From assembly GCA_963809795.1 (NCBI GenBank), contig CAWELN010000005.1, positions 23,772 to 87,771 of the forward strand: a stretch of 64,000 nt of DNA, given 5' to 3'. Each line of letters begins with the position of its first letter. Within the stretch, counting starts at the first letter, position 1. Under the pieces are notes generated by a model. It searched no databases. It saw nothing but the letters and a program-made list of their open reading frames with translations, and was not told the origin of the DNA. The translations under genes were made by a program, and so were the position numbers. The stretch is from an uncultured Actinomycetes bacterium (lineage in GTDB: Bacteria; Actinomycetota; Acidimicrobiia; IMCC26256; DASPTH01). Of the stretch, positions 6,374 through 20,884 are shown piece by piece.

Positions 6374-6639
6374 GCTGCACACTGAGACACTGTAGACCGA
6401 ACACACGTTCGTCGAGAGTTCGGAACCACGCGGTGGAACGTGTCCCAGAACGCCGGGTCGGGGCGTACAGATTGCCGGTCGAATGGCGCAGGAGAACGTC
6501 TGAGAGTGCGCACCGATCCGGCGCTCTGTCGCGTCCACCGGCCAACCGGGCACGGATGGCGGCCGCGCCATAGCTGCCTGATTGAGTTCGTGGAGGCGTT
6601 GCGGGTGATTCTCAGGGGTCGGCTCATAGCGTCCCCGTA

Positions 6640-7188
6640 ATGCAGCGTTCGCTCGTAGCCGGGCTCATCCTGGCCGTACTCGTGGTGGCGGGCGCCGGAG
6701 TTGCAGCCTTCGTCGTGCTTCGGGACAGTCCACGAGCTGGACAGCCATGCACTGTGACTGTCGATGCCCACTCCTGGGGCCTCGACCGAGAACAGGTTAC
6801 CAACGCGCAGACCATCAGTCAGACGGCGACCAATCTTGGCCTCCCGCACCATGCAGTGACTGTGGCGCTCGCTGCCGCTTTCCAAGAGTCGACGCTGCAC
6901 AACCTTACGCACGGCGACCGTGATTCGGTCGGGTTGTTCCAGCAACGACCTTCGCAGGGGTGGGGTACACCGGCGCAACTGCTCGACACGTCGTACGCGT
7001 CAGAGGCGTTCTTGCGTGCCTTGTCGAAGGTTCCGGGTTGGGATGTCATGCCGGTAGCGGAGGCTGCGCAGAGTGTGCAGCACAGTGCCGCACCGGGTGC
7101 CTACGCGAACTGGGAACCCGAGGCACGCTCACTGGCACGTGCCGTAACGGGCGAAGTATCGGGCGCTCTGAAGTGTCGCCCCGGATGA
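6640..7188 (+). CDS. Membrane-anchored/secreted protein with transglycosylase-like conserved core
   Basis: N-terminal TM/signal LVAGLILAVLVVAGAGVAAFVVL. Conserved actinobacterial block ESTLHNLTHGDRDSVGLFQQRPSQGWGT. Confidence 0.7.
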   Translation: MQRSLVAGLILAVLVVAGAGVAAFVVLRDSPRAGQPCTVTVDAHSWGLDREQVTNAQTISQTATNLGLPHHAVTVALAAAFQESTLHNLTHGDRDSVGLFQQRPSQGWGTPAQLLDTSYASEAFLRALSKVPGWDVMPVAEAAQSVQHSAAPGAYANWEPEARSLARAVTGEVSGALKCRPG

Positions 7189-7243
7189 TCTACACCAGGC
7201 GAGCCGAACCGCGCCGACCCACACTCCCAACGAGCGCCATATT

Positions 7244-7292
7244 TGCCGATCGGCATTCGCTGAGCAGCGCCGGAGGCGGGCATTCTAAGCGC
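7244..7292. repeat. Family-3 palindromic element
   Basis: GCGCCATATTTGCCGATCGGCA ... GGCGGGCATTCTAAGCGC. Lies 56 nt downstream of the stop at 7188. Confidence 0.5.
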
Positions 7293-7391
7293 ACCCGCGG
7301 GTGACGCGATGAACGTCGATTGCGTTCGCTAACCAGCACCGAGCCACACGGCAGTGGCGAGTGCCCTGCCCCGACGAAGGGAGCGACGGAG

Positions 7392-7523
7392 ATGGGCGAG
7401 CTTCGGGCTGAGATCGAGATCGCCGCACCACCCGAACGGGTGTGGCGGGTGCTCAGCGATTTCGATGCCTATCCAGAGTGGAACCCGTTCATCCGTTCGT
7501 TCGTTGTAGCTGCCGATCGGTAA
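7392..7523 (+). pseudogene. 5' remnant of an SRPBCC (polyketide cyclase/START-like) gene
   Basis: MGELRAEIEIAAPPERVWRVLSDFDAYPEWNPFIRS is a typical SRPBCC N-terminus, but the ORF stops after 43 codons. No frame continues the domain before the next gene at 7629. Confidence 0.55.
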
Positions 7524-7628: not shown

Positions 7629-8996
7629 GTGGCAGATCAGCCGGGCGTCGACCTGCCTGACGGGATGGTCGAGTGGATCGCTGAGGTTGGCGTGGGTCGT
7701 GTCACTCGTGTCGAACGTCATATCGCTCGGCGGGAGGCCTGGGTGGTCGATGTCGCACGCGCCGATGGGAGCGTGGGTGAGTATTTCTTGCGGCTCGACC
7801 GTGGATCGGCGCCGGCCGCAAGCCCATGGAGCGTGCACAAGGAGATGCGCGTGGTCGACACGCTCTTTCGCGCCGGGCTGCCGGTGCCTGAGGTACACGG
7901 TTGGAATGGCACGCTGCAGGCCGCGCTGTACGAGCGGGTGCGTGGGCGCGACGACCTCCCGGTCGACACGACTCCGGAGCAACGTCGCGCGGTGTGGGAC
8001 CAGTTCATAGGGTTCGTCGTTGATCTCCACGCGCTCGAGCCGCGCGAGCTGGATCTCGCGGACGTGCTCGCGTGGCCGGAGGACGCGCGGGCAGCTGCGC
8101 TGGACGAGGTCGAGAAGCTCGAGCAGCTGATGAGCGTCGACGTCGTGGAGCCGCTGGTCACGTTCGGGTCGCAGTGGCTCCGCCGGTACGCGCCGACTGA
8201 TTTGGACCGTGTCGTGCTCGTGCAGGGAGACACCGGGCCCGGCAACTTCCTGTTCGAGAATTCGCAGCTCACGGGGGTGATCGACTTCGAGTGGGCACAC
8301 TTCGGTGATCCCATGGAGGACTTCGGGAACATGGCGGTGCGGGAGTTCTTCTACCCGTCCGCCAATCTCGCCGAGGTGTTCCCGCTGTACGAGAAGCTGG
8401 GTGGCGACGCGATCGACTTCGACCGTGTGCGCTACTACCGGGTGCACCAGATGGTGCGTTCGGTGATCGCGCTGGTCCAGATGACCACCCTCAACGATCC
8501 GACGACGACCGTCGCGCTCAATCTCTGTTACCGCGTGATCTGTGACCGCGCGGCGTGTGAGGCGATCGCCGACGCGATGCACGTCGATCTCGAACGGCCG
8601 CCGCCGTTGGGCACGGCGGCGTCCAACGGCGGGTACACCATCGGTGAGGTTGTGCTCGACAACCTTCGGCGCGAGGTCTCCCCGTCGATCGATGACACCT
8701 GGGCGCGCCATCAACTCGAACATTCGGCCCTGCTCGTCGAGTGCATGGACCGCGTCGCCCGACTTGGCGCCACCGTGGACGCGATCGAGGTGGACGAACT
8801 CGCGGTGCTCCTGGGCGAGCGACCCGTGACCGCCGAAGCCGGTCTGGCGAGCCTCGACGCGGCGCTGCGGGAGTCGGACGGAGATCGCGACGACGACGTG
8901 CTGCGGTACCTCGCCCGGCGCGCCTATCGCGCCGAAGACCTCTACGCACCAGTGGTCGCACTCTTTCCTGCCCGTGAGTTCTCGCCCCTCATCTGA
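7629..8996 (+). CDS. Phosphotransferase family protein (APH/acyl-CoA-dehydrogenase-associated kinase type)
   Basis: The GTG start is preceded by GAGGAGG. Catalytic region VLVQGDTGPGNFLFENSQLTGVIDFEWAHFGDPMEDF. Confidence 0.85.
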   Translation: MADQPGVDLPDGMVEWIAEVGVGRVTRVERHIARREAWVVDVARADGSVGEYFLRLDRGSAPAASPWSVHKEMRVVDTLFRAGLPVPEVHGWNGTLQAALYERVRGRDDLPVDTTPEQRRAVWDQFIGFVVDLHALEPRELDLADVLAWPEDARAAALDEVEKLEQLMSVDVVEPLVTFGSQWLRRYAPTDLDRVVLVQGDTGPGNFLFENSQLTGVIDFEWAHFGDPMEDFGNMAVREFFYPSANLAEVFPLYEKLGGDAIDFDRVRYYRVHQMVRSVIALVQMTTLNDPTTTVALNLCYRVICDRAACEAIADAMHVDLERPPPLGTAASNGGYTIGEVVLDNLRREVSPSIDDTWARHQLEHSALLVECMDRVARLGATVDAIEVDELAVLLGERPVTAEAGLASLDAALRESDGDRDDDVLRYLARRAYRAEDLYAPVVALFPAREFSPLI

Positions 8997-9050
8997 CGAG
9001 ATCAGCGCCATCAAAACGACGGATTGTCGGGGGACACCGCGTCGCTCCGC

Positions 9051-9134
9051 GCGCCATATCTCTGCCGCTCCGCACGCGCCGAGACTCCGGCCGAACCCGG
9101 GCCGCGTATCTGCTCCCGAGCGGGCATTCGGTGC
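9051..9134. repeat. Family-3 palindromic element (long-loop copy)
   Basis: GCGCCATATCTCTGCCGCTCCGC ... CGAGCGGGCATTCGGTGC. Lies between the convergent stops at 8996 and 9198. Confidence 0.5.
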
Positions 9135-9197
9135 TACCTGGGCACTGTGCTTGCCGGGCCGCGAGCGTGGGCGTCGGTACTGCCGCGGGCGCGGTCA

Positions 9198-10232
9198 TCA
9201 TCGGCGTCGGTGGGCGCTCCGCGTCGGGCAGATCGCCACCGCGTACGGAACCTTGCCGACGGTGATGGGGGCCGACACCGCACCCGTCGCGGTGGTGATC
9301 ACCGACACTGTGCCGTCCACAGAGTTGGTCACGTAGGCGTGCTTGCCGTCAGGGGTGAACGCCACCGCGTCTGGACCCCCGCCGACGGTGACGGGCGACA
9401 CCGCACCCGTCGCCGTCGTGATCACTGACACCGTGTTACCCGCGCCGTTATTCCCCTCGTTGGTCACGTAGGCGTGCTTGCCGTCAGGGGTGATCGCCAC
9501 CGAGACCGGAAACGCGCCGACGGTGATGGGGGTCGACACCGCGCCCGTCGCCGTCGTGATCACCGACACCGTGCCGTCGCCGCCGTTGATCACGTAGGCG
9601 TGCTTGCCGTCAGGGGTGATCGCCACCCCAACCGGAAACTTGCCGACGGTGATGGGGGTCGACACCGCGCCCGTCGCCGTCGTGATCACCGACACCGTAC
9701 CGTCACGGAAGTTGGGCACGTAGGCGTGCTTGCCGTCAGGGGTGATCGCCACCTGCGGCGGACCCCCGCTGACGGTGATGGGGGCCGACACCGCACCCGT
9801 CGCGGTGGTGATCACCGACACCGTACTGTCGTCACGGTTGATCACGTAGGCGTGCTTGCCGTCAGGGGTGATCGCCACCGTGGTCGGACCCTTGCCGACG
9901 GTGATGGGCGCCGACACCGCACCCGTCGCCGTCGTGATCACCGACACCGTGCCGCCGAAGACGTTGGTCACGTAGGCGTGCTTGCCGTCAGGGGTGATCG
10001 CCACCCCACCCGCACCCGGACCCCCGCCGACGGTGATGGGCGACACGGCACCCGTCGTCGTGGTGATCACCGACACCGTGCCGTCCAGGTAGTTGGTCAC
10101 GTAGGCGGTGCCCGGACACCCTCCGGCCGCAGCCGCAGCGGACGCAGCCGATGTCGCGACCACAATCCCCGCCCCCGACAACGCGACCACGACAACGGCA
10201 ACGAGCTTCCGGCACCCAGCGACGCCGTGCAT
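9198..10232 (-). CDS. Secreted 7-bladed YVTN-family beta-propeller protein (paralog 1)
   Basis: The ATG at 10232 follows GGGAGGG. Signal peptide KLVAVVVVALSGAGIVVATSAASA. Seven repeats of AYVxN....TVSVITTATGAVS.PITVG..P..VAITPDGKH. Confidence 0.9.
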   Translation of the reverse strand: MHGVAGCRKLVAVVVVALSGAGIVVATSAASAAAAAGGCPGTAYVTNYLDGTVSVITTTTGAVSPITVGGGPGAGGVAITPDGKHAYVTNVFGGTVSVITTATGAVSAPITVGKGPTTVAITPDGKHAYVINRDDSTVSVITTATGAVSAPITVSGGPPQVAITPDGKHAYVPNFRDGTVSVITTATGAVSTPITVGKFPVGVAITPDGKHAYVINGGDGTVSVITTATGAVSTPITVGAFPVSVAITPDGKHAYVTNEGNNGAGNTVSVITTATGAVSPVTVGGGPDAVAFTPDGKHAYVTNSVDGTVSVITTATGAVSAPITVGKVPYAVAICPTRSAHRRR

Positions 10233-10450
10233 TGGCCCTCCCGCGTGTTCGAACGGAAGAGGCGGAGGGCTCAAACTCGAGCAGGGTCTAGACCAGGCTC
10301 AAACTCGGCGTCGCTCCCGAAAGGTGAACAAGGTGACCGTACACCCGATGCCCAGCGAAGGAAGGAGTGCCGTCACGTAACGGGCGGCAATGCTCGTGCA
10401 TTCAGTCCCGTCACCCGACGAGCGCATGGTGCCCGTTCTCGTGCGGCGGT

Positions 10451-10545
10451 GCACGCAGATCTGCCGATCGGGCGTGTCGGCGGCGTCGGCGCGACTCACC
10501 GCGTGCTCTAGCGCGCAACTGCACCCGAGCGGGCAATCTGGCGCG
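10451..10545. repeat. Family-3 palindromic element (long-loop copy)
   Basis: GCACGCAGATCTGCCGATCGGG ... CGAGCGGGCAATCTGGCGC. Lies in the 440-nt gap between propeller paralogs 2 and 1. Confidence 0.5.
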
Positions 10546-10671
10546 ACCAGTGGCCAGGCCCTCAAACGCTACGAGCGAACCCGCAACGCCTGCACGAGAT
10601 CCTCTATCAGGCATTGTGCTACCTCAGCGCTTTACGCGCCTTCCGGTGGCTTTCGCGACGGGAGGAGGTCT

Positions 10672-11730
10672 CTACCGGCGATTGTGGGTGCCCCGCGCCG
10701 GGCAGATCGCCATGAAGATCGGACCGTTGCCGACAGTGATCGGGGGCGACACCGCACCCGTCGCGGTCGTGATGACCGACACCGTGCCGGCGCCGTTACT
10801 GACCACGTTGTTGGTGACGAAGTTGGCGACGGAGGAGTTGACCACGTAGACGTGTTTGCCGTCAGGTGTGCTCGCCACCCCATTGGGACGGCTGCCGACG
10901 GTGATGGGGGCTGCCACCGCACCCGTCGCGGTCGTGATCACCGATACCGTGCCATCGGCGTTGTTGGCCACATAGGCGTGCTTGCCGTCAGGAGTGATCG
11001 CCACCCCAATCGGAGCCTTGCCGACGGTGATGGGGGCTGCCACCGCACCCGTCGCGGTCGTGATCACCGACACCGTGCCATCGGCGTTGTTGACCACGTA
11101 GGCGTGCTTGCCGTCAGGGGTGATCGCCACCAGTTCGGGAGCGTTGCCGACGGTGATGGGGGCTGCCACCGCACCCGTCGCGGTCGTGATCACCGACACG
11201 GTGCCATCGGCGTTGTTGGCCACGTAGGCGTGCTTGCCGTCAGGGGTGATCGCTACGCCGCTGGGACCGTTGCCGACGGTGATGGGGGGTGACACCGCAC
11301 CCGTCGCGGTCGTGATCACCGACACCGTGTCAGCGAAGGCGTTGGTCACGTAGGCGTGCTTGCCGTCAGGGGTGATCGTCACCTCGTTGGGACCGTTGCC
11401 GACGGTGATGGGGGGTGACACCGCAGCCGTCGCGGTCGTGATCACCGACACTGTGCCGGCGATGATGTTGGCCACATAGGCGTGCGTGCCGTCAGGAGTG
11501 ATCGCCACTCCGACCGGACGGCTGGGCACGGTGATGGGGGGCGACACCGCACCCGTGGCGGTCGTAATTACCGACACCGTGCCATCGGCGTTGTTGTTCA
11601 CATAGGCCTTTCCTGCGCACCCCTCGACAGCCGCCGCGGGCGCAGCCGACGTTGTGACCAGCACCCCCGACCCCGACAACGCGATGACGATCACGGCTAC
11701 GACCTTCCGGCGCAAACGGACAGCGTTCAC
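10672..11730 (-). CDS. Secreted 7-bladed YVTN-family beta-propeller protein (paralog 2)
   Basis: The GTG at 11730 follows GGAGAGGGA. Signal peptide RRKVVAVIVIALSGSGVLVTTSAAPAAA. Seven YVTN blades; blade 7 carries the insertion SSVANFVTNNVVSNGAG. Confidence 0.9.
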   Translation of the reverse strand: MNAVRLRRKVVAVIVIALSGSGVLVTTSAAPAAAVEGCAGKAYVNNNADGTVSVITTATGAVSPPITVPSRPVGVAITPDGTHAYVANIIAGTVSVITTATAAVSPPITVGNGPNEVTITPDGKHAYVTNAFADTVSVITTATGAVSPPITVGNGPSGVAITPDGKHAYVANNADGTVSVITTATGAVAAPITVGNAPELVAITPDGKHAYVVNNADGTVSVITTATGAVAAPITVGKAPIGVAITPDGKHAYVANNADGTVSVITTATGAVAAPITVGSRPNGVASTPDGKHVYVVNSSVANFVTNNVVSNGAGTVSVITTATGAVSPPITVGNGPIFMAICPARGTHNRR

Positions 11731-11788
11731 AGGTCACTCCCTCTCCAAGTGCCCGCGGGCACGGCAAAATTTCAGCGCTTCGCGAACT

Positions 11789-12982
11789 TCACGCTGGGCA
11801 GATCGCCATGTTGATGGGACCTTTGCCGACAGTGATCGGGGGCGACACCGCACCCGTCGCGGTGGTGATGACCGACACCGTGCCGGCGCCATTGGCGGCG
11901 ACGTCGTTGGTGACGAAGTTGTTGACGGACGAGTTGGTCACGTAGACCTGCTTGCCGTCAGGCGTGATCGCCACGCCGATCGGACGGCTGCCGACGGTGA
12001 TGGGTGGCGACACCGCACCCGTCGCGGTCGTGATCACCGACACCGTGCCATCGGCGTTGTTGGTCACGTAGGCGTGCGTGCCGTCCGGAGTGATCGCCAC
12101 CTGCTCCGGACCGTTGCCGACGGTGACGGGGGCTGACACCGCACCCGTCGCGGTCGTGATCACCGACACCGTGCCGCCACCGTTGTTGGCCACGTAGACG
12201 TGCTTACCGTCCGGAGTGATCGCCACGCCGTGAGGAGCGTTACCGACGGTGATGGGCGCCGAGAGCGCGCCCGTCGCGGTCGTGATGACCGACACCGTGC
12301 TGCCACCATCGTTGGCCACGTAGACGTGCTTGCCGTCGGGAGTGACCGCTATCCCATCCGGACCGTTGCCGACAGTGATGGGGGGCGACACCGCACCTGT
12401 CGCGGTCGTGATCACCGACACCGTGCCATCGGCGTTGTTGGTCACGTAGACGTGCTTACCGTCGGGAGTGATCGCCACCCCGACCGGAGCCTTGCCGACG
12501 GTGATGGGGGCTGACACCACACCCGTCGCGGTCGTGATCACCGACACCGTGCCGTCGATGACGTTGGTCACGTAAGCGTGCGTGCCGTCGGGAGTGATCG
12601 CCACCCCGGTCGGACGGGCGCCGATGGTGATGGGGGCTGACACCGCACCGGTCGCGGTGGTGATCACTGAGACCGTGCCATCGGCGTTGTTGTTCACGTA
12701 CGCCTTTCCCGCGCACCCCCCGACAGCCGCGACCGGCGGGAGCGTGGGCGTCTGCACCGAGGACGGGTGGTTGCCACCGGAGAAGAGGAGTACCCCTCCT
12801 ATGACCAGCGCGACGACGAGACAGGCGGCAATCACGGCAATCACCGGCACACGACGCGCGACCCGCTGCGCCGTGGGCTCGGCTGTCGTCGTCAAGGACG
12901 TCGGCCGGACCTCGATCTGGCCAGCAGCGTCGCGCAGCGCGGTCCGCAACGCGGATTCGATGGATTGGTCCCTGCCGTTCAC
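11789..12982 (-). CDS. Membrane-anchored 7-bladed YVTN beta-propeller, putative anti-sigma/sensor partner of the upstream ECF sigma
   Basis: The GTG start overlaps the sigma stop (GTGA). About 45 cytoplasmic aa (IESALRTALRDAAGQ) precede one TM (VPVIAVIAACLVVALVIGGVLLF) and seven YVTN blades. No HxxxCxxC zinc anti-sigma motif. Confidence 0.85.
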   Translation of the reverse strand: MNGRDQSIESALRTALRDAAGQIEVRPTSLTTTAEPTAQRVARRVPVIAVIAACLVVALVIGGVLLFSGGNHPSSVQTPTLPPVAAVGGCAGKAYVNNNADGTVSVITTATGAVSAPITIGARPTGVAITPDGTHAYVTNVIDGTVSVITTATGVVSAPITVGKAPVGVAITPDGKHVYVTNNADGTVSVITTATGAVSPPITVGNGPDGIAVTPDGKHVYVANDGGSTVSVITTATGALSAPITVGNAPHGVAITPDGKHVYVANNGGGTVSVITTATGAVSAPVTVGNGPEQVAITPDGTHAYVTNNADGTVSVITTATGAVSPPITVGSRPIGVAITPDGKQVYVTNSSVNNFVTNDVAANGAGTVSVITTATGAVSPPITVGKGPINMAICPA

Positions 12983-13425
12983 TGCGGGATCGCCTTTCTC
13001 AGCGTCGCGAGTCCGCGATGCACAAGCGATCGCACCGTCGCGGGCCTACACCCCAGTGCCTGCGCGATCTCGGAGTCTGGGCGGTCCTCGTAGAAGCGCA
13101 AGACGAGCGCGGCCCGTTGGCGATAGGGCAGCTCCGAAAGGGCGTCCAAGACGACCGGCGTCTCTGGCACCACCGTGTCAGTGACCAGCTCGGGAAAATG
13201 CGATCGTTCACGACGGTTCCGCCGATGATGCGCACTGCACCCGTTCACGACCGTGACGCGCAGGTACGCAGATGGCTGCCGGACCCCGTCCCAATGACGA
13301 TGCAAACGAACGAACGCGTCCTGAACGACATCCTCCGCCACCGCACTGCTGCCGGTCAGCAGATAGGCGACGCGCACCAGCCGCTCGTGCTCTCCGGCAA
13401 ACACCGCACCCATCGACCGAGTCAC
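12979..13425 (-). CDS. ECF-type RNA polymerase sigma-70 family factor
   Basis: Region 2: HERLVRVAYLLTGSSAVAEDVVQDAFVRLHRHW. Region 4: LPYRQRAALVLRFYEDRPDSEIAQALGCRPATVRSLVHRGLATLRK. The start is uncertain (GTG 13425, ATG 13413 or GTG 13482); a GGAGGGGGAG run lies at about 13438-13447. Confidence 0.85.
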   Translation of the reverse strand: MTRSMGAVFAGEHERLVRVAYLLTGSSAVAEDVVQDAFVRLHRHWDGVRQPSAYLRVTVVNGCSAHHRRNRRERSHFPELVTDTVVPETPVVLDALSELPYRQRAALVLRFYEDRPDSEIAQALGCRPATVRSLVHRGLATLRKAIPQ

Positions 13426-13534
13426 ATCGTCTGGGATCTCCCCCTCCAATACCAGCCTCTCGCTACCTCGCGACAACCCCACACTGAGTAGATGCCGCAG
13501 ACGCCAACTCTGTTGCGCGTACACCCAAGAAACC

Positions 13535-13567
13535 AAAAAAACCCGGGCGTTCCCACAGGCCGCCCGG
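13535..13567 (-). terminator. Intrinsic terminator between the SARP-cyclase-STAND gene and the sigma operon
   Basis: The minus strand reads CCGGGCG-GCCTGTGGGAA-CGCCCGG-G-TTTTTTT. That is a 7-bp GC stem, an 11-nt loop and a 7-U tract. Confidence 0.65.
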
Positions 13568-13765
13568 ACCCCCGCGTTCTCACACGCCACCTCACCAGCC
13601 TGATCTTGGGCTCGCGACCACCGCGCTGACCCTCCCTGAAATCAGCCTCTCGTAGGCACTTCACACCTCGCCTGGTCCCGGCGCACGCGCTGTATCTGTG
13701 ACCAATGTGTGACCACAGGCGGGTCCAGGCCACGAGAACGACCGAAACGCTTGGTGGCGAAGGCG

Positions 13766-13832
13766 CACACGCATATCTGCCGCTCGGTACTCGCGCAACT
13801 CCAGCTGCGCAGCTGAGCGTTCGGAGCGCGCG
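13766..13832. repeat. Partial family-3 element abutting the stop of the SARP-cyclase-STAND gene
   Basis: CACACGCATATCTGCCGCTCGG core, plus GCGCGCAACT shared with the copy at 10451..10545. The second arm is weak. Confidence 0.35.
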
Positions 13833-16800
13833 TTATGGCGCGCCGAGGGCTCGGCCGGCTTCGGCGCGTAGGTAGGTGACGGCGTCGGCCATGTCGAGGG
13901 CGGCGCCCCGTGCGGCGAGCGTCGCGACCTGTTGTTCGCCGAGGACTTCGAGGAGGGCGACCTCGGTCGCCGCGAGCATTTCGAGGCTCCAATCGAATCC
14001 CCATCGTCCCGCCATCGCGTCGGATTTCCCGAAGAGGACGGCCGCCGGCTCGCAAGACCCGAGCGCGCACAACGCGACACCAGCCGTGTAGAGGGACCTA
14101 CTCGCAACGCCATGGTCACCGAGTTCGAGCGTCTGTTCGGCGGCGTCGACGGCCCCTTGGAGGGCTGTTGGCCAGTCACCATGTCGCATCGCGATCCTCG
14201 CTTTGTAATGGATCGCGTTCGAGACGCCGTTACGGTCACCGATGCGGGTACCGATCTCGATGGCTTCGTCGAGCAGCCCGAGCGCGCGTTCGGACTCCTC
14301 GTACGGGAGCCAAGTCGCGACGATTGTGAGGCCGATCGCGAGCGCCGCGTCGATGCCGGCGGCACGGGCGACGCGCACCGCTTCGTCAACGGCGGCGGTC
14401 GCGGCGTCGAGCGTCGGTTCAGTGATCTGGAGCGCGCCTCCGAGCATGATGAGTGCGTGTGCGAGTTCGCCAGGGTCCCCGGATGCCCGCGCGAGCTCGA
14501 CCCATTCCTCGGCGTGACGTCGTGCCTCCTCGAAGTCAGTGCGATAGAACGCGAGGGTCGCCTGAGCCCGCGCCACGTACCCAAGCCGTATACCGAGCGC
14601 GGCTTGGGCTCGTTCCGCGGCGGCGACGAGGTCTGCGGCCCGCTCGAGATCGCCGCCCATCGTTGCGCCCCACGCGGCCCAGGCGGCGACCACGGGAACG
14701 AGCGGGTGACCGTCGCCGCCGGGGATCGCGATCGCGGTCGTGGCCCAGTCCATCGCGAGTTCGCCGATCCTGCCGTGCACCGCCAGCGGGGCGACGAGGC
14801 GCAGCGCGTGCTCGGGTGAAGGTGTCTCGACTGCCCAATCGAGCGCCGCGCGGAAGTTGTCGATGTCGCGCGCGACGACGTTGGTCCACTCCAGGTGGTC
14901 TCGGCCCCGCAGGTGGAGACCGGCCGCTTCGGCCAGCGCGACGTAGTAGTCGGCGTGGCGACGTCGCACCACCGCCGGATCGCCACTCGCGTCGAGCCGC
15001 TCACGCGCGTACTGGCGGATCGTCTCCAGCAGCCGGTAACGCACCCCGCCGTCTGCGTCGTCGGTGACGACGAGGGACTTGTCCACCAGTTGACCCAACA
15101 CGTCGACCACATCCAGCGCGTCGAGGTCGTCGTCGGGCAGCACCGCTTCCGCGGCCCCAAGATCACAGCCACCCGCGAACACCGACAGGCGGTCGAACGC
15201 ATGACGCTCGGTCGGGGTGAGCAGGTCATAGGACCAGTCGATCGTGCTCCGCAACGTCTGGTGGCGTTCCGGTGCCGCGCGACTGCCGTGCGTGAGGAGC
15301 TTGAACCGTTGATCGAGGCGGGACACGAGATCCTCCGGTGACAACGACCGCACCCGCGCCGCCGCCAGCTCGATCGCGAGCGGGATCCCGTCCAGGCGTC
15401 GACACAACACGCCGACGGCACCGACGTTGCGGTCGGTGAGCGCGAAGTCGCGCTTCGCCGTGCTCGCCCGATCCCAAAACAGACACACCGCCTCCGCCCG
15501 CCTCACCTCGTCCACATCCGCATCACCGGCCGGGACACCCAGCGGCGGCACCGCGACGATCCGCTCGCCCGCCAACCCGAGGCCCTCCCGGCTTGTCGCG
15601 AGCACCGACACGTCTGGGCAACGATGCTCGATGGCATCGACCTGACGCGCGACCGCATCGAGGAGATGCTCGCAGTTGTCGAGCACCAGCAACAACCGCT
15701 TCGCGGCGAGATAGTCGAGTACCGACTCGTCGAGCGCCCGACCCGGCAGCGGCAGCACCCGCAGGCACGCCGCGACGGTCTCCCACACCGCCTCCGGATC
15801 GGTGACCGGCGCGAACTCGCACAACCACGCACCGTCGGGGAACTCGTCGATGATCTCCGCCGCAATCTGGAGTGCGAGACGGGTCTTGCCGACCCCGCCC
15901 ACCCCGGTCAAAGTCACCAGCGACGACCGACAGACCAGCTCCGACAGTGACGCGATCTCGGCCTCGCGTCCGACGAACGTCGTCGCCTGACGCGGCAGGT
16001 TGTTGCGTGCGAAGGCGTCCAAAGTGCGGAGCGGCGCGAACTCCCGCTCCAGATCGGGATGGGCTACTTGAAACAAGCGCTCCGTCCGCCCGAGATCACG
16101 CAGCCGGTGCTCTCCCAGGTCGATGAACCCGTACTTCTCGGGGAGGGCGTCGTGCAGCACCTCTTCCGTCGCGGCTGACACGACGATCTGGCCGCCGTGC
16201 GCCACCGACATCAGCCGCTCGGCGCGATTCACCGCGCCGCCGCTGTAGTCGCCGTCGCGGACCTCCGCCTCGCCGGTATGGATCCCCATCCGGACGCGCA
16301 CGGTCTGCGCGATGTTCCAGTCGTCCGCGAGCAGCGACCTTTGGGCGGCAACCGCAGCCGTGACCGCATCGTGGGCGGTCGCGAACACAGCGTGGAACCC
16401 ATCGCCCGCGTTCTTGACGATGAAGCCACCCTGTGACTTGACCGCATCGCGCAGCAGCTCGTCGTGACGCGGCATCGCATAGGTCATCACGTCGGGACTC
16501 TCGTCCCACAGGCGCGTCGAACCCTCCACCTCGGTGAAGAGGAACGACACGGTCCCCGACGGCAGATGTGCTGAGTCTGGGTCCTTCGTCGGCGATCCCG
16601 CCCACCCGACGTCGGGGTCCTGCCGCACGATGTCGTCGTTGAGCGCCTGCAGTCCGGGCGACGGGACCACACCGACCTCGTCGGTCAGGCGCCGACGAAA
16701 CTCGTCGTACGCGCGCAGTGACTCGACCGGCCTACCGGCGCGGGCGAGCGCGAGCATCAGCAGCGCTCGCAGTCGCTCGCGAAACGGCTCAACCGCGATC

Positions 16801-17384
16801 TGGGCCTCGAGTTCGCCGACGACGTCCTCGGGGCGGCCCAACTCCAAGAGCGCGGCGGACCGTTCCTCGATCGCCCGGGCGCGCAGCTCAACCAGTCGAG
16901 CAACCTCCGCGGTGGCGAACTCCTCACTCGCGAACTCCGCGTAGGGGGACCCTCGCCACAGCCCGAGCGCCTCGTCGAACGCGCCGAGCGCTACCTCCGG
17001 GCGTTCAGACGCCCCGAGCCCGACCCGCACCAGCTCCTCGAAACGCAACGCGTCGACCTCGCCGCTCGCCACCCGCAGCCGATACCCCGGTGGGCGTGTC
17101 TCCAGGCGGTCGTCACCAAGCGTCTGGCGCAGCCGCGACACCAATCCCTGGAGCGTCTGCGTCGCACTCGGCGGCGGCCCGTCACCCCACAGAACGTCGA
17201 CGAGACGATCCCTCGAGACCACCTCGTTGGCGTGGACCACCAACGCCGCGAGCAAGCGGCGCTGCTGCCCGCTTCCCAGCCGAACCCGCTCGCCGTCGCG
17301 CACGACCTCCAACGGGCCCAGCACACACAGCGCCGTCGCCACCCGGTCCTCCACCGGCCCTCCAACCCCACCCACACTCAACAT
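13833..17384 (-). CDS. Multidomain regulator: SARP winged-helix + BTAD, class III adenylate/guanylate cyclase, NB-ARC/STAND P-loop ATPase, TPR-like C-terminus (1183 aa)
   Basis: wHTH/BTAD: VLGPLEVVRDG...LLAALVV...LVDVLWGD...PGYRL, EALGLWRGSPY. Cyclase: VSFLFTEVEGSTRLW, KNAGDGFHAVF, MGIHTGEAE, GGAVNRAERL. P-loop: LTGVGGVGKTRLAL, LLLVLDNCEH, GIPLAIELAA. Helical repeats run to the stop. Confidence 0.92.
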   Translation of the reverse strand: MLSVGGVGGPVEDRVATALCVLGPLEVVRDGERVRLGSGQQRRLLAALVVHANEVVSRDRLVDVLWGDGPPPSATQTLQGLVSRLRQTLGDDRLETRPPGYRLRVASGEVDALRFEELVRVGLGASERPEVALGAFDEALGLWRGSPYAEFASEEFATAEVARLVELRARAIEERSAALLELGRPEDVVGELEAQIAVEPFRERLRALLMLALARAGRPVESLRAYDEFRRRLTDEVGVVPSPGLQALNDDIVRQDPDVGWAGSPTKDPDSAHLPSGTVSFLFTEVEGSTRLWDESPDVMTYAMPRHDELLRDAVKSQGGFIVKNAGDGFHAVFATAHDAVTAAVAAQRSLLADDWNIAQTVRVRMGIHTGEAEVRDGDYSGGAVNRAERLMSVAHGGQIVVSAATEEVLHDALPEKYGFIDLGEHRLRDLGRTERLFQVAHPDLEREFAPLRTLDAFARNNLPRQATTFVGREAEIASLSELVCRSSLVTLTGVGGVGKTRLALQIAAEIIDEFPDGAWLCEFAPVTDPEAVWETVAACLRVLPLPGRALDESVLDYLAAKRLLLVLDNCEHLLDAVARQVDAIEHRCPDVSVLATSREGLGLAGERIVAVPPLGVPAGDADVDEVRRAEAVCLFWDRASTAKRDFALTDRNVGAVGVLCRRLDGIPLAIELAAARVRSLSPEDLVSRLDQRFKLLTHGSRAAPERHQTLRSTIDWSYDLLTPTERHAFDRLSVFAGGCDLGAAEAVLPDDDLDALDVVDVLGQLVDKSLVVTDDADGGVRYRLLETIRQYARERLDASGDPAVVRRRHADYYVALAEAAGLHLRGRDHLEWTNVVARDIDNFRAALDWAVETPSPEHALRLVAPLAVHGRIGELAMDWATTAIAIPGGDGHPLVPVVAAWAAWGATMGGDLERAADLVAAAERAQAALGIRLGYVARAQATLAFYRTDFEEARRHAEEWVELARASGDPGELAHALIMLGGALQITEPTLDAATAAVDEAVRVARAAGIDAALAIGLTIVATWLPYEESERALGLLDEAIEIGTRIGDRNGVSNAIHYKARIAMRHGDWPTALQGAVDAAEQTLELGDHGVASRSLYTAGVALCALGSCEPAAVLFGKSDAMAGRWGFDWSLEMLAATEVALLEVLGEQQVATLAARGAALDMADAVTYLRAEAGRALGAP

Positions 17385-17420: not shown

Positions 17421-17540
17421 TCTCTCTCACTCTGTGGTCGAGGAAAACATCCTCCCACAGGCCGGTCTGGAAGGAGATCGGATCGTGGAAGCCGTAGGCC
17501 TGCAGGCGCCCACGGCCGTCGACAACCAAAGGAGGAAGTC

Positions 17541-18017
17541 ATGACCGAGCTGCAGTCACCGCAGCGAAGGAGTTTCACGGCGAAGACAATCTTCGGATTG
17601 CTCCTGGCCGTCGTCATGGTCGCAGCGTTCGCCACCGCAGGCTCTGCCACTCCCCGCAGCGGAGACCAACTTCACGTGACGAAGGAGTGCTCTCAGTACT
17701 CCGGTCTCTCCGGTGGGTTCTGCACGATCACCGGGTCGAACCTGAACGCGATCGACGCCGGTATGAAGGTCATCTACGCCTCAGCAGCCGATTTCAAAAC
17801 CATGACCTTGGACAGCAACCTCGTCCTCGATGGCCCAGGTAACAACAATGCCTACGGCCACGTCGTGCTGGACCTCAGCACGGGTCTCGGCATCCTCACG
17901 TTCACAGGCGGGACCGGCCGGTTCAGCGGGTTCCAGGCAAAGGTGAACGTCACGTGCGCCGCCACCTGTGCGTGGGACGGGTCGTACAGCTTCACCCCAC
18001 CCGGCCACGACAAATAA
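17541..18017 (+). CDS. Small secreted hypothetical protein (158 aa)
   Basis: GGAGGA lies 4 nt upstream of the ATG at 17541. Signal peptide IFGLLLAVVMVAAFATAGSA. The mature region contains 4 Cys. Confidence 0.7.
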   Translation: MTELQSPQRRSFTAKTIFGLLLAVVMVAAFATAGSATPRSGDQLHVTKECSQYSGLSGGFCTITGSNLNAIDAGMKVIYASAADFKTMTLDSNLVLDGPGNNNAYGHVVLDLSTGLGILTFTGGTGRFSGFQAKVNVTCAATCAWDGSYSFTPPGHDK

Positions 18018-20249: not shown

Positions 20250-20884
20250 ATGCGTTTCCTTACGTTGACGCGCACGGGCGTGCGCTTTGAACCGGTGGTC
20301 ACCTGGTCGAGGGACGCAGCACCAGGAACTGCTCGACGCGCACATAGAAAGCAGAACCAAAGTTCAGTGCCACGTCGATTGGGAGGATCGAATGGACGTT
20401 AAGCATCAGCGTTGGCTCGCGCGCAGCATTGACGACGGGATGGCGACGTACGCGACTAGGGAGACGCGTGCGAGAGACGAGTCGAACGGTCGAAGGACCT
20501 GGTCGGTATCAAGACGGGCCTTCGTGACAGGTCCGGCTCGTGCTACGCGGGTACGCATGGGTCACTGTGTCGCGCAGGTGTTGACTGGCGGGTTCCAGGC
20601 GCGAGGGTTCAGACGTTAAGGTCTGGTATCGGAGAACTGACGACTGAGAAAATCGCGGCAAAATAAGGAGGAACGACTACGAGGGGAAGGGCAAATGCCC
20701 TGATAGGGGATCGCGTGCAGGCGTTGCGGGCGTGCTCGTAGGTGTGAAGCCCCGAGTCTCAAGCGACTCGGACCCTCACGGGGAGCGGAGGCCCCGCTCC
20801 TTCATCGCATCAGCTCTGCACTCGATGCCGCGACTCTCGGGGCGCTGGTAGCGGGCCCGCGGCCGCGGGACGCCCGGCGGGTAG

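Follow-up and report, generated by a model that had tools for sequence, protein, structure and literature searches.

A SigE-family sigma factor with an exchangeable, membrane-anchored YVTN propeller as its putative sensor in uncultured Acidimicrobiia

Introduction

What does an entire β-propeller do in the place that usually belongs to an anti-sigma factor? This question is raised by a locus in a stretch of 64,000 nucleotides from an uncultured Acidimicrobiia bacterium (assembly GCA_963809795.1, contig CAWELN010000005.1, positions 23,772 to 87,771; this whole 64 kb stretch is referred to here as the window). Four co-directional open reading frames (ORFs) on the minus strand encode, in this order, a sigma factor of extracytoplasmic function (ECF), a membrane-anchored propeller of the YVTN type, and two secreted YVTN paralogs that we name secA and secB (Table 1); the three propeller genes are the only YVTN genes within the window. 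All four ORFs are present as an original prediction, made from the DNA alone, had described them. That prediction went further: it placed the membrane protein in the position of an anti-sigma factor, and it held both the sensor architecture and the one-anchored-plus-two-secreted arrangement to be without a known characterised counterpart.

On balance we favour the view that the first two genes form a sigma/anti-sigma module of the actinobacterial SigE-family type, in which the anchored propeller would be the anti-sigma sensor. What is new here is a SigE-family pair with an exchangeable YVTN sensor and a co-encoded secreted twin, recurring in uncultured Acidimicrobiia; the arrangement is less singular than first claimed.

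Results

The sigma factor and its membrane partner

By domain content, the product of the first gene is an ECF (group 4) sigma-70 factor: it matches the Pfam models Sigma70_r2 (PF04542, 1e-11), r4_2 (PF08281, 2e-14) and r4, and it has no region 3. The best NCBIfam match is to the SigE family (TIGR02983, 132.9 bits, under the curated cut-off of 141.55), with the next family at 70.9 bits, and a homolog of 73% identity carries the NCBI name SigE family; the match to BldN is weak (2.4e-5). There are 2173 homologs at E<=1e-10, and those with a named source are from Acidimicrobiia or Acidimicrobiales. It is the single sigma factor of SigE type within the window. The original prediction began the gene at a GTG (13425); the gene and its stop codon stand, but the TTG at 13449 is the more likely start, since a GAGAGG ribosome-binding site (RBS) lies 6 nt upstream, homologs reach to this position, and the gene call in the collection also gives 156 residues.

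The TGA of the sigma gene (12981..12979) overlaps the GTG of the next gene (12982..12980) in the sequence cgcaGTGAacg, exactly as had been predicted. The protein encoded there consists of a cytoplasmic tail (residues 1-44), one transmembrane (TM) helix (~45-67), a juxtamembrane segment, HPSSVQTP, and a seven-bladed YVTN propeller (90-397), a layout of tail, TM helix and propeller also foreseen by the prediction; AlphaFold2 and Foldseek support the seven-bladed propeller with high confidence. In the AlphaFold2 model the propeller (93-394) has predicted local distance difference test (pLDDT) values >95, the TM helix spans residues 48-67, and the tail contains a helix at residues 4-21 (pLDDT 67-81), followed by a low-confidence linker at residues 23-46. 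The YVTN repeat model TIGR02276 matches at E=1e-64 (1e-62 to 1e-64 across the three propellers, so that the predicted repeat type is borne out in each), and the best match among solved structures is 1L0Q, both by sequence (9e-66) and in Foldseek, where it ranks first (TM-score 0.70, 43% identity). Two cysteines, C90 at the start of the propeller and C395 in its last strand, are invariant or nearly so, also in secA, secB and homologs, which suggests a putative ring-closing disulfide. Two further propeller models are matched below their cut-offs by all three proteins: the Rv1057-like NF048007 (88.7, 73.4 and 64.9 bits; cut-off 600) and TIGR03866, for propellers associated with PQQ-dependent catabolism (174, 253 and 147 bits; cut-off 287.3).

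The 44-residue tail contains neither Cys nor His, and hence, as the prediction had it, no zinc anti-sigma motif (HxxxCxxC). Its helix is our candidate for the sigma-binding element: residues I8, A11, L12, A15, L16 and A19, read from the sequence, form one hydrophobic stripe along it. Further out, the juxtamembrane sequence (D/N/H)-P-x-SVQTP (residues ~70-78) is kept in anchored homologs with differing tails (P0122, P0123, P0148, P0176, P0191 and P0196) and is absent from the secreted paralogs; we view it as a candidate stalk or site-1 cleavage site.

A widespread family of sigma factors and single-pass partners

A scan of the genome collection by sigma alignment yielded relatives of <=53% identity, which we used as a broad sample of partner proteins; this distant sample comprises 160 loci from across Actinomycetota, with sigma relatives 35-53% identical. 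A metagenome scan with the sigma protein was swamped by generic peptide patterns, and the sole close relative that it returned was L084 (loci are cited here by such labels).

In most of ~150 SigE-family loci, the start of the next gene overlaps the sigma stop codon at an offset of -3 (a 4-nt overlap), and the downstream partner has a short tail and one TM helix, the onset of which lies at a median of residue 44 (115 partners). Eight columns of the tail are conserved (n=115: E 96, L 84, R 86, A 63, L/F 82, A 86, V/I 85, P 68), and the window protein carries all eight residues: E9, L12, R13, A15, L16 and A20, then V25 and P27. It also has the other marks of these partners, namely the overlap, the ExxLRxAL...A...VxP motif, a basic stretch, and a TM helix at 45-67. 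Bearing in mind that the tail motif, the overlap and the single TM helix are common to ~115 partners, we consider the window pair to be one case of a widespread sigma/partner family in Actinomycetota, apparently uncharacterised; the predicted anti-sigma position of the membrane protein gains support from the same three features.

The outer domains of these partners are mutually unrelated. In Pfam (n=112) they include Gmad2 (11), the PD40 propeller (6), Germane (6), Kelch (2), FtsX_ECD (2) and DUF4232 (2), with one each of LytR, YkuD and PASTA; most have no match at all. YVTN propellers are rare in this company: no YVTN gene was found near the sigma factor in the loci from the genome-collection scan, and a blade hidden Markov model run over the 160 distant loci found only L140 and L127, the match in the latter being at a distance of 4.5 kb from its sigma gene.

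Partners of this general kind are a common feature of ECF groups: a putative anti-sigma factor is listed for 114 of 157 groups, as a rule at position +1, and those of 82 groups are single-TM proteins, according to the main text of a survey in which the actinobacterial clade ECF222/51/38/39 shares one anti-sigma type (Casas-Pastor et al. 2021, PMC7826278). We infer that this shared type may be the tail motif found here.

Tails and outer domains are exchanged in both directions

Another key observation concerns the close relatives of the window sigma factor, in which the tail and the outer domain part company. An anchored YVTN partner occurs in four other loci of the same sigma clade: L164 (sigma 99% identical), L165 (93%), L173 (90%) and L083 (85%). 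In four further loci, L082 (sigma 90%), L084 (83%), L167 (73%) and L168 (69%), the tail, E[SA]ALRxALxDAAxQ[IV][DE]V, and the TM helix are kept while the outer domain is unrelated. The linkage of orthologous sigma factors to propellers, on which the original prediction depended, thus holds for the first four loci and gives way to non-propeller partners in the second four. L082, L081 and L084 lose nucleotide homology to the window at ~12905, in codon 25 of the partner gene. More generally, a Mantel-type test over 114 pairs shows that sigma similarity follows tail similarity (rho 0.46) more closely than outer-domain similarity (rho 0.36), and 37% of the closest 5% of sigma pairs have unrelated outer domains.

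Exchange is also seen the other way round. A search with the whole membrane protein recovers anchored YVTN homologs in which the TM and juxtamembrane region is near-identical (TRRAP..AIAACLVVALVxGG..L....DPxSVQTP) and the tails are quite different; a homolog search with the tail and TM segment alone gave no matches. The TM-plus-YVTN module stands, with 8-nt overlaps, behind unrelated ECF sigma factors in L170/L171 (26% identity) and L172 (33%). From this two-way exchange we conclude that each tail travels with its sigma factor, whereas the TM-plus-propeller part is a portable sensor module. Of all the evidence, this pattern speaks most strongly for the tail as the putative sigma-specific contact.

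In the gene calls P0121, P0127 and P0128, a sigma factor is joined to the anchored propeller through a garbled junction, and the fusions look like frameshift artefacts of error-prone assemblies, not natural proteins.

A conserved promoter-like block and a palindrome

Upstream of the sigma gene lies a block, GCAAC-N17-CATCTAC, that is nearly invariant in an alignment of five relatives with otherwise divergent flanks, and of which the window holds a single exact copy. Sigma-E promoters of Streptomyces coelicolor have AAC at -35 and TC at -10, with spacers of 16-17 bp (PMC6767563); the conserved block would fit an autoregulated ECF promoter, probably serving the sigma factor, the anchored propeller and secA. 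Other candidates were rejected: the search upstream of secA and secB gave only GCGAC-N15-GGTCTA at 10314..10289, which is weak and wrongly spaced, and matches to the motif within the blades' coding sequence seem to stem from the repeats.

Between the anchored gene and the secA RBS there is a perfect 14-bp palindrome, GTGCCCGCGGGCAC, which is unique in the window and which, of 172 loci, recurs only in L164, L083, L170 and L171, each time at the equivalent position. It may act as an operator or form an RNA hairpin; an alternative fold at this site would occlude the RBS and start codon of secA.

Blade variability is confined to two loops

The window contains 21 blades (9198..12715), seven in each of the three proteins, at a spacing of 42 residues, and each of the three genes has an intact reading frame. 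Similarity among the blades is unusually high: mean amino-acid identity is 77% in the 13 canonical blades of 42 residues (80-90% at the DNA level), and variability is confined to positions 21, 22, 24 and 25 and positions 38, 40 and 41, which belong to the loops after strands 2 and 4. Bearing in mind that successive blade loops alternate between faces, the topology would place these two variable loops on the same face of the propeller. The ratio of nonsynonymous to synonymous substitutions (dN/dS) is 2.5 at the variable codons, compared with 0.21 elsewhere, for codons that were picked after their variability had been seen. Highly repetitive propellers with hypervariable binding faces have been described in other bacteria, and the window blades resemble them.

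Relation to known anti-sigma factors and propellers

The closest known systems are the SigE-family/ECF39 pairs together with ECF38, ECF51 and ECF222 (PMC7826278): these share the sigma type, the overlapping downstream partner, the single TM helix and the short conserved cytoplasmic region, the group assignment of the window pair being indirect. Neither a YVTN propeller nor a secreted paralog is described for any member in the main text of that survey, and we found no description of a YVTN propeller as an anti-sigma sensor in ECF-focused literature on YVTN and sigma factors. On the other hand, the partner family is common, PD40 (6/112) and Kelch (2/112) propellers are already found among its members, and single-TM partners at position +1 are listed for most groups in the same main text. 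The claim of an unprecedented sensor architecture therefore survives, within this literature, for the YVTN sensor, but not for the type of pair, nor for propeller sensors as such.

Turning to individual anti-sigma factors, RsbN, the partner of BldN in Streptomyces venezuelae (6DXO; PMC6101532), is likewise encoded next to its sigma factor, is single-pass, has no zinc motif and a large extracytoplasmic domain, and bears no similarity to classical anti-sigma domains. However, RsbN (class III) has a cytoplasmic part of 117 residues with three helices in residues 1-91, whereas the window tail has 44 residues and one helix. Nor does the tail resemble the class I fold, a three-helix bundle plus a fourth helix (PMC6101532), or its zinc-binding form: in addition to its length and single helix, it has no Cys or His and no zf-HC2 or RskA match. 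Class II elements (CnrY, NepR; PMC6101532) are also very short and zinc-free, but they form a two-helix clamp, act on another sigma group and have no sequence similarity to the tail, for which one helix is predicted and residues 23-46 are of low confidence. In ECF57 (PMC8999054), a propeller is again tied to ECF control; there, however, it is a WD40-like C-terminal extension fused to the sigma factor, whereas the window propeller is of the YVTN type, belongs to a separate membrane partner, and is accompanied by secreted paralogs.

As for the propeller, 1L0Q is the S-layer YVTN propeller of Methanosarcina mazei: it is the closest solved relative in both fold and sequence, but its source is the surface layer of an archaeon, where the protein has a PKD domain and no signalling context. 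The propeller of PknD (1RWI) also matches the anchored protein (7e-10). PknD of Mycobacterium tuberculosis is a single-pass protein with an extracellular six-bladed NHL propeller as its sensor, and so provides another case in which the sensor is a whole propeller; its output is a Ser/Thr kinase in place of a tail, and its six blades are of the NHL type, compared with the seven YVTN blades of the window protein.

Alternative roles for the anchored propeller

Several points weigh against an anti-sigma role. The tail matches no anti-sigma model in Pfam or NCBIfam, zf-HC2 and RskA included; with 44 residues and one predicted helix, it is shorter than class I and class III domains; and some members of this sigma clade, the sigma-E factor of S. 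coelicolor among them, are controlled transcriptionally, without an anti-sigma factor (PMC8999054). The correlation of sigma similarity with tail similarity could come from co-inheritance alone. Neither secA nor secB is preceded by a convincing copy of the sigma promoter motif. Finally, the dN/dS contrast within the blades depends on codons chosen with their variability in view.

The first three of these points are also what would be expected if the anchored propeller were a co-transcribed envelope effector. The sigma factor would then be controlled elsewhere (for example, transcriptionally), the tail would serve insertion, localisation or another partner, and the output of envelope stress would consist of the three propellers. 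There are precedents: Rv1057/MSMEG_5308, a mycobacterial seven-bladed propeller that stabilises the MmpL3-TtfA complex, is an output that stress induces through SigE and MprAB (PMC6593404), and a Starkeya YVTN gene that neighbours an rpoE1/anti-sigma pair is situated just downstream of a promoter activated by RpoE1, from which it is probably expressed (PMC6527743). Rv1057 resembles the window protein in being an actinobacterial seven-bladed propeller tied to an envelope-stress ECF regulon; however, it is not adjacent to sigE, it has no sigma-coupled tail, and the weak match of the window propellers to the model of the MmpL3 stabiliser (88.7 bits at best, against 600) places them outside the NF048007 family. 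Furthermore, if the partner were no more than an effector, one would expect neither a sigma-specific tail that persists through exchange of the entire outer domain nor one outer module combined with different tails beside different sigma factors, and the near-universal overlap with the stop codon suggests a fixed stoichiometry, as in sigma/anti-sigma pairs. We regard the effector role as possible, though unlikely.

We think it improbable that the partner acts positively, with a tail that is needed for the activity or stability of the sigma factor and a propeller that switches it on. FecR, the N-terminal part of which acts positively with FecI, provides a precedent, and both the position of the partner and its co-variation with the sigma factor show a coupling to which they give no sign. 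Against this, single-pass partners at position +1 act as inhibitors in most of the characterised cases, as far as the main text of the ECF survey goes (PMC7826278), and the sequence holds nothing that points to activation.

The secreted paralogs secA and secB

If the anchored propeller is an anti-sigma sensor, as we favour, how do its two secreted relatives belong to the module? The N-termini of secA and secB combine a basic and a hydrophobic stretch with Ala-X-Ala sites, at which cleavage of a signal peptide would be expected; in an alignment, the hydrophobic part falls on the TM anchor of the membrane protein. The original prediction of two signal-peptide-bearing paralogs with the same layout is therefore upheld as regards the seven blades of each, and as regards the signal peptide to the extent that these sequence features indicate one. 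In addition, secA and the anchored protein share a 55-residue spacing of the last blade, and their last blades are 88% identical at the DNA level.

The two paralogs differ in how they are tied to the locus. The secA gene begins 58 nt downstream of the anchored gene, no terminator was found between the two, and secA has no copy of the sigma promoter motif of its own; it is thus probably co-operonic with the genes for the sigma factor and the anchored propeller. In L164, the closest relative, a 2.9-kb block of 94% nucleotide identity spans the sigma gene, the anchored gene and secA and then diverges into different flanks: secA is present there and secB is not. In L172, with its unrelated sigma factor, a secreted YVTN paralog follows the anchored gene at a distance of 153 nt, whereas L165, L083 and L173 have no secreted propeller. 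The secB gene lies 439 nt beyond secA, and the unit that contains it (10241..9115) is 91% identical to a solitary copy in L169 (8762-9894) that adjoins an IS110 transposase. The one-anchored-plus-two-secreted arrangement therefore does not hold as a general layout: one anchored and one secreted propeller recur (L164, L172), and the second secreted copy is specific to this genome. Thus secB is no conserved part of the locus; we propose that it is a later, separately acquired copy.

It is highly improbable that the three-propeller cluster as a whole is incidental, the result of recent duplication and mobile DNA with neither secreted copy functionally tied to the sigma module, although for secB alone this is quite likely: the solitary secB copy beside a transposase, the absence of secB from L164, the three loci with no secreted propeller, and repeats of 80-90% DNA identity, which favour recombination, are set against the recurrence of the sigma/anchored/secreted order with the unrelated sigma factor of L172, the placement of secA 58 nt downstream behind a conserved palindrome and RBS, the secA-like start remnants in L083 and L170, and three intact frames with a dN/dS of 0.21 at non-variable codons.

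These remnants lie after the palindrome in L083 (1877-1950) and L170 (6399-6480), where ~45 nt resemble the 5' end of secA and are followed by a new RBS. The next gene encodes a secreted protein of 168-169 residues with no Pfam match, the two proteins being mutually homologous, and it looks as if the secreted propeller had been replaced by another secreted protein. A link between these 168-aa proteins and the window ORF at 17535..18017 (GGTGRF motif) was dropped, since phmmer found no similarity. Also of note is that the solitary copy in L169 sits in a 1.63-Mb contig with further transposases close by. In the window, the spacer between secA and secB contains two repeats (81-88% identity over 35-48 nt): one, at 10569..10615, resembles the intergenic sequences 20694..20741 and 6575..6606, and the other, at 10512..10548, resembles 9103..9138, just downstream of secB.

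Genomic surroundings

The gene upstream of the locus encodes, as predicted, a large SARP-cyclase-STAND protein (domain matches in Table 1). It is unlinked to the sigma locus in relatives, where the flanks differ. PADLOC models match neither the four locus proteins nor this STAND gene, and an Rfam search of 8500..14200 found nothing. Between the STAND gene and the sigma promoter, the original prediction had placed an intrinsic terminator: an 8-bp GC stem followed by U7 is indeed present (-23.5 kcal/mol), but its folding is statistically ordinary (z-score -1.28) and the hairpin is not conserved in the aligned relatives.

On the other side, an APH-family phosphotransferase gene (7629..8996, plus strand) is convergent with secB; in L164, a weak APH-like gene (6992-7486) lies upstream of the sigma gene. 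The different placement of these genes indicates that the surroundings of the cassette have been rearranged between close relatives.

Table 1. Features of the sigma/propeller locus and its surroundings, with positions in the window unless another locus is named.
Feature	Position	Strand	Basis
ECF sigma factor, SigE family, 156 aa, TTG start	12979..13449	-	Pfam, TIGR02983, homologs, RBS
Anchored YVTN propeller protein, 397 aa, putative anti-sigma sensor	11789..12982	-	GTG start overlapping sigma TGA; hidden Markov models, AlphaFold2, Foldseek
Candidate sigma-binding amphipathic helix SIESALRTALRDAAGQ, codons 4-21 of anchored protein	12920..12973	-	AlphaFold2 and conserved residues
secA, secreted seven-bladed YVTN paralog, 352 aa	10672..11730	-	ORF, TIGR02276, blade count
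secB, second secreted seven-bladed YVTN paralog, 344 aa	9198..10232	-	ORF, TIGR02276, blade count
ECF-type promoter-like block GCAAC-N17-CATCTAC upstream of sigma gene	13488..13516	-	-35 AAC 13514..13512, -10 TC 13492..13491
Perfect 14-bp palindrome GTGCCCGCGGGCAC between anchored gene and secA RBS	11749..11762		sequence
The same palindrome in relatives	L164 9648-9661; L083 1863-1876; L170/L171 6385-6398 (beside unrelated sigma factor)
Terminator-like hairpin with U7 tract, between SARP-cyclase-STAND gene and sigma promoter	13535..13571	-	sequence, folding
Large upstream protein, 1183 aa (SARP-cyclase-STAND)	13833..17384	-	Trans_reg_C, BTAD, Guanylate_cyc, NB-ARC/STAND, TPR

Discussion

We suggest that the locus would operate as follows. 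Translational coupling would ensure that the sigma factor and its single-pass partner are made together, and the tail of the partner, with its 18-residue amphipathic helix and the short conserved V-x-P stretch, would hold the sigma factor at the membrane. Outside the cytoplasm, the seven-bladed YVTN propeller would be the sensor; a ligand from the envelope or from outside would probably be bound on the face with the hypervariable loops. The sigma factor would be freed by a signal, or by regulated cleavage close to the juxtamembrane SVQTP, and might then transcribe its own AAC-N-TC promoter to give more sigma factor, more anchored propeller and the co-transcribed secA. The secA protein would be an output of the module and may recognise ligands of the same class outside the cell; secB would be the later, separately acquired copy.

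A bolder and, in our estimation, doubtful extension of this scheme joins two proposals: that the helix and V-x-P stretch constitute a minimal, structurally new class of anti-sigma element, serving very many SigE-family sigma factors in Actinomycetota, and that the sigma-induced secreted near-copy is a decoy, providing negative feedback by competing for ligand on a diversifying face.

ECF sigma factors are a major route of bacterial signalling, and most of their membrane partners are unstudied. The hosts of the present locus are uncultured Acidimicrobiia, in which signalling biology is almost unknown. The locus and its relatives amount to a natural domain-swapping experiment, in which a sigma-specific tail of ~25 residues is found with interchangeable sensors, and one sensor is found with different tails; this points to the tail as the determinant of specificity. 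The tail is thereby a very small candidate anti-sigma element, usable in engineered switches, and the pairing of an anchored with a secreted propeller, both variable on one face, suggests a receptor/decoy arrangement.

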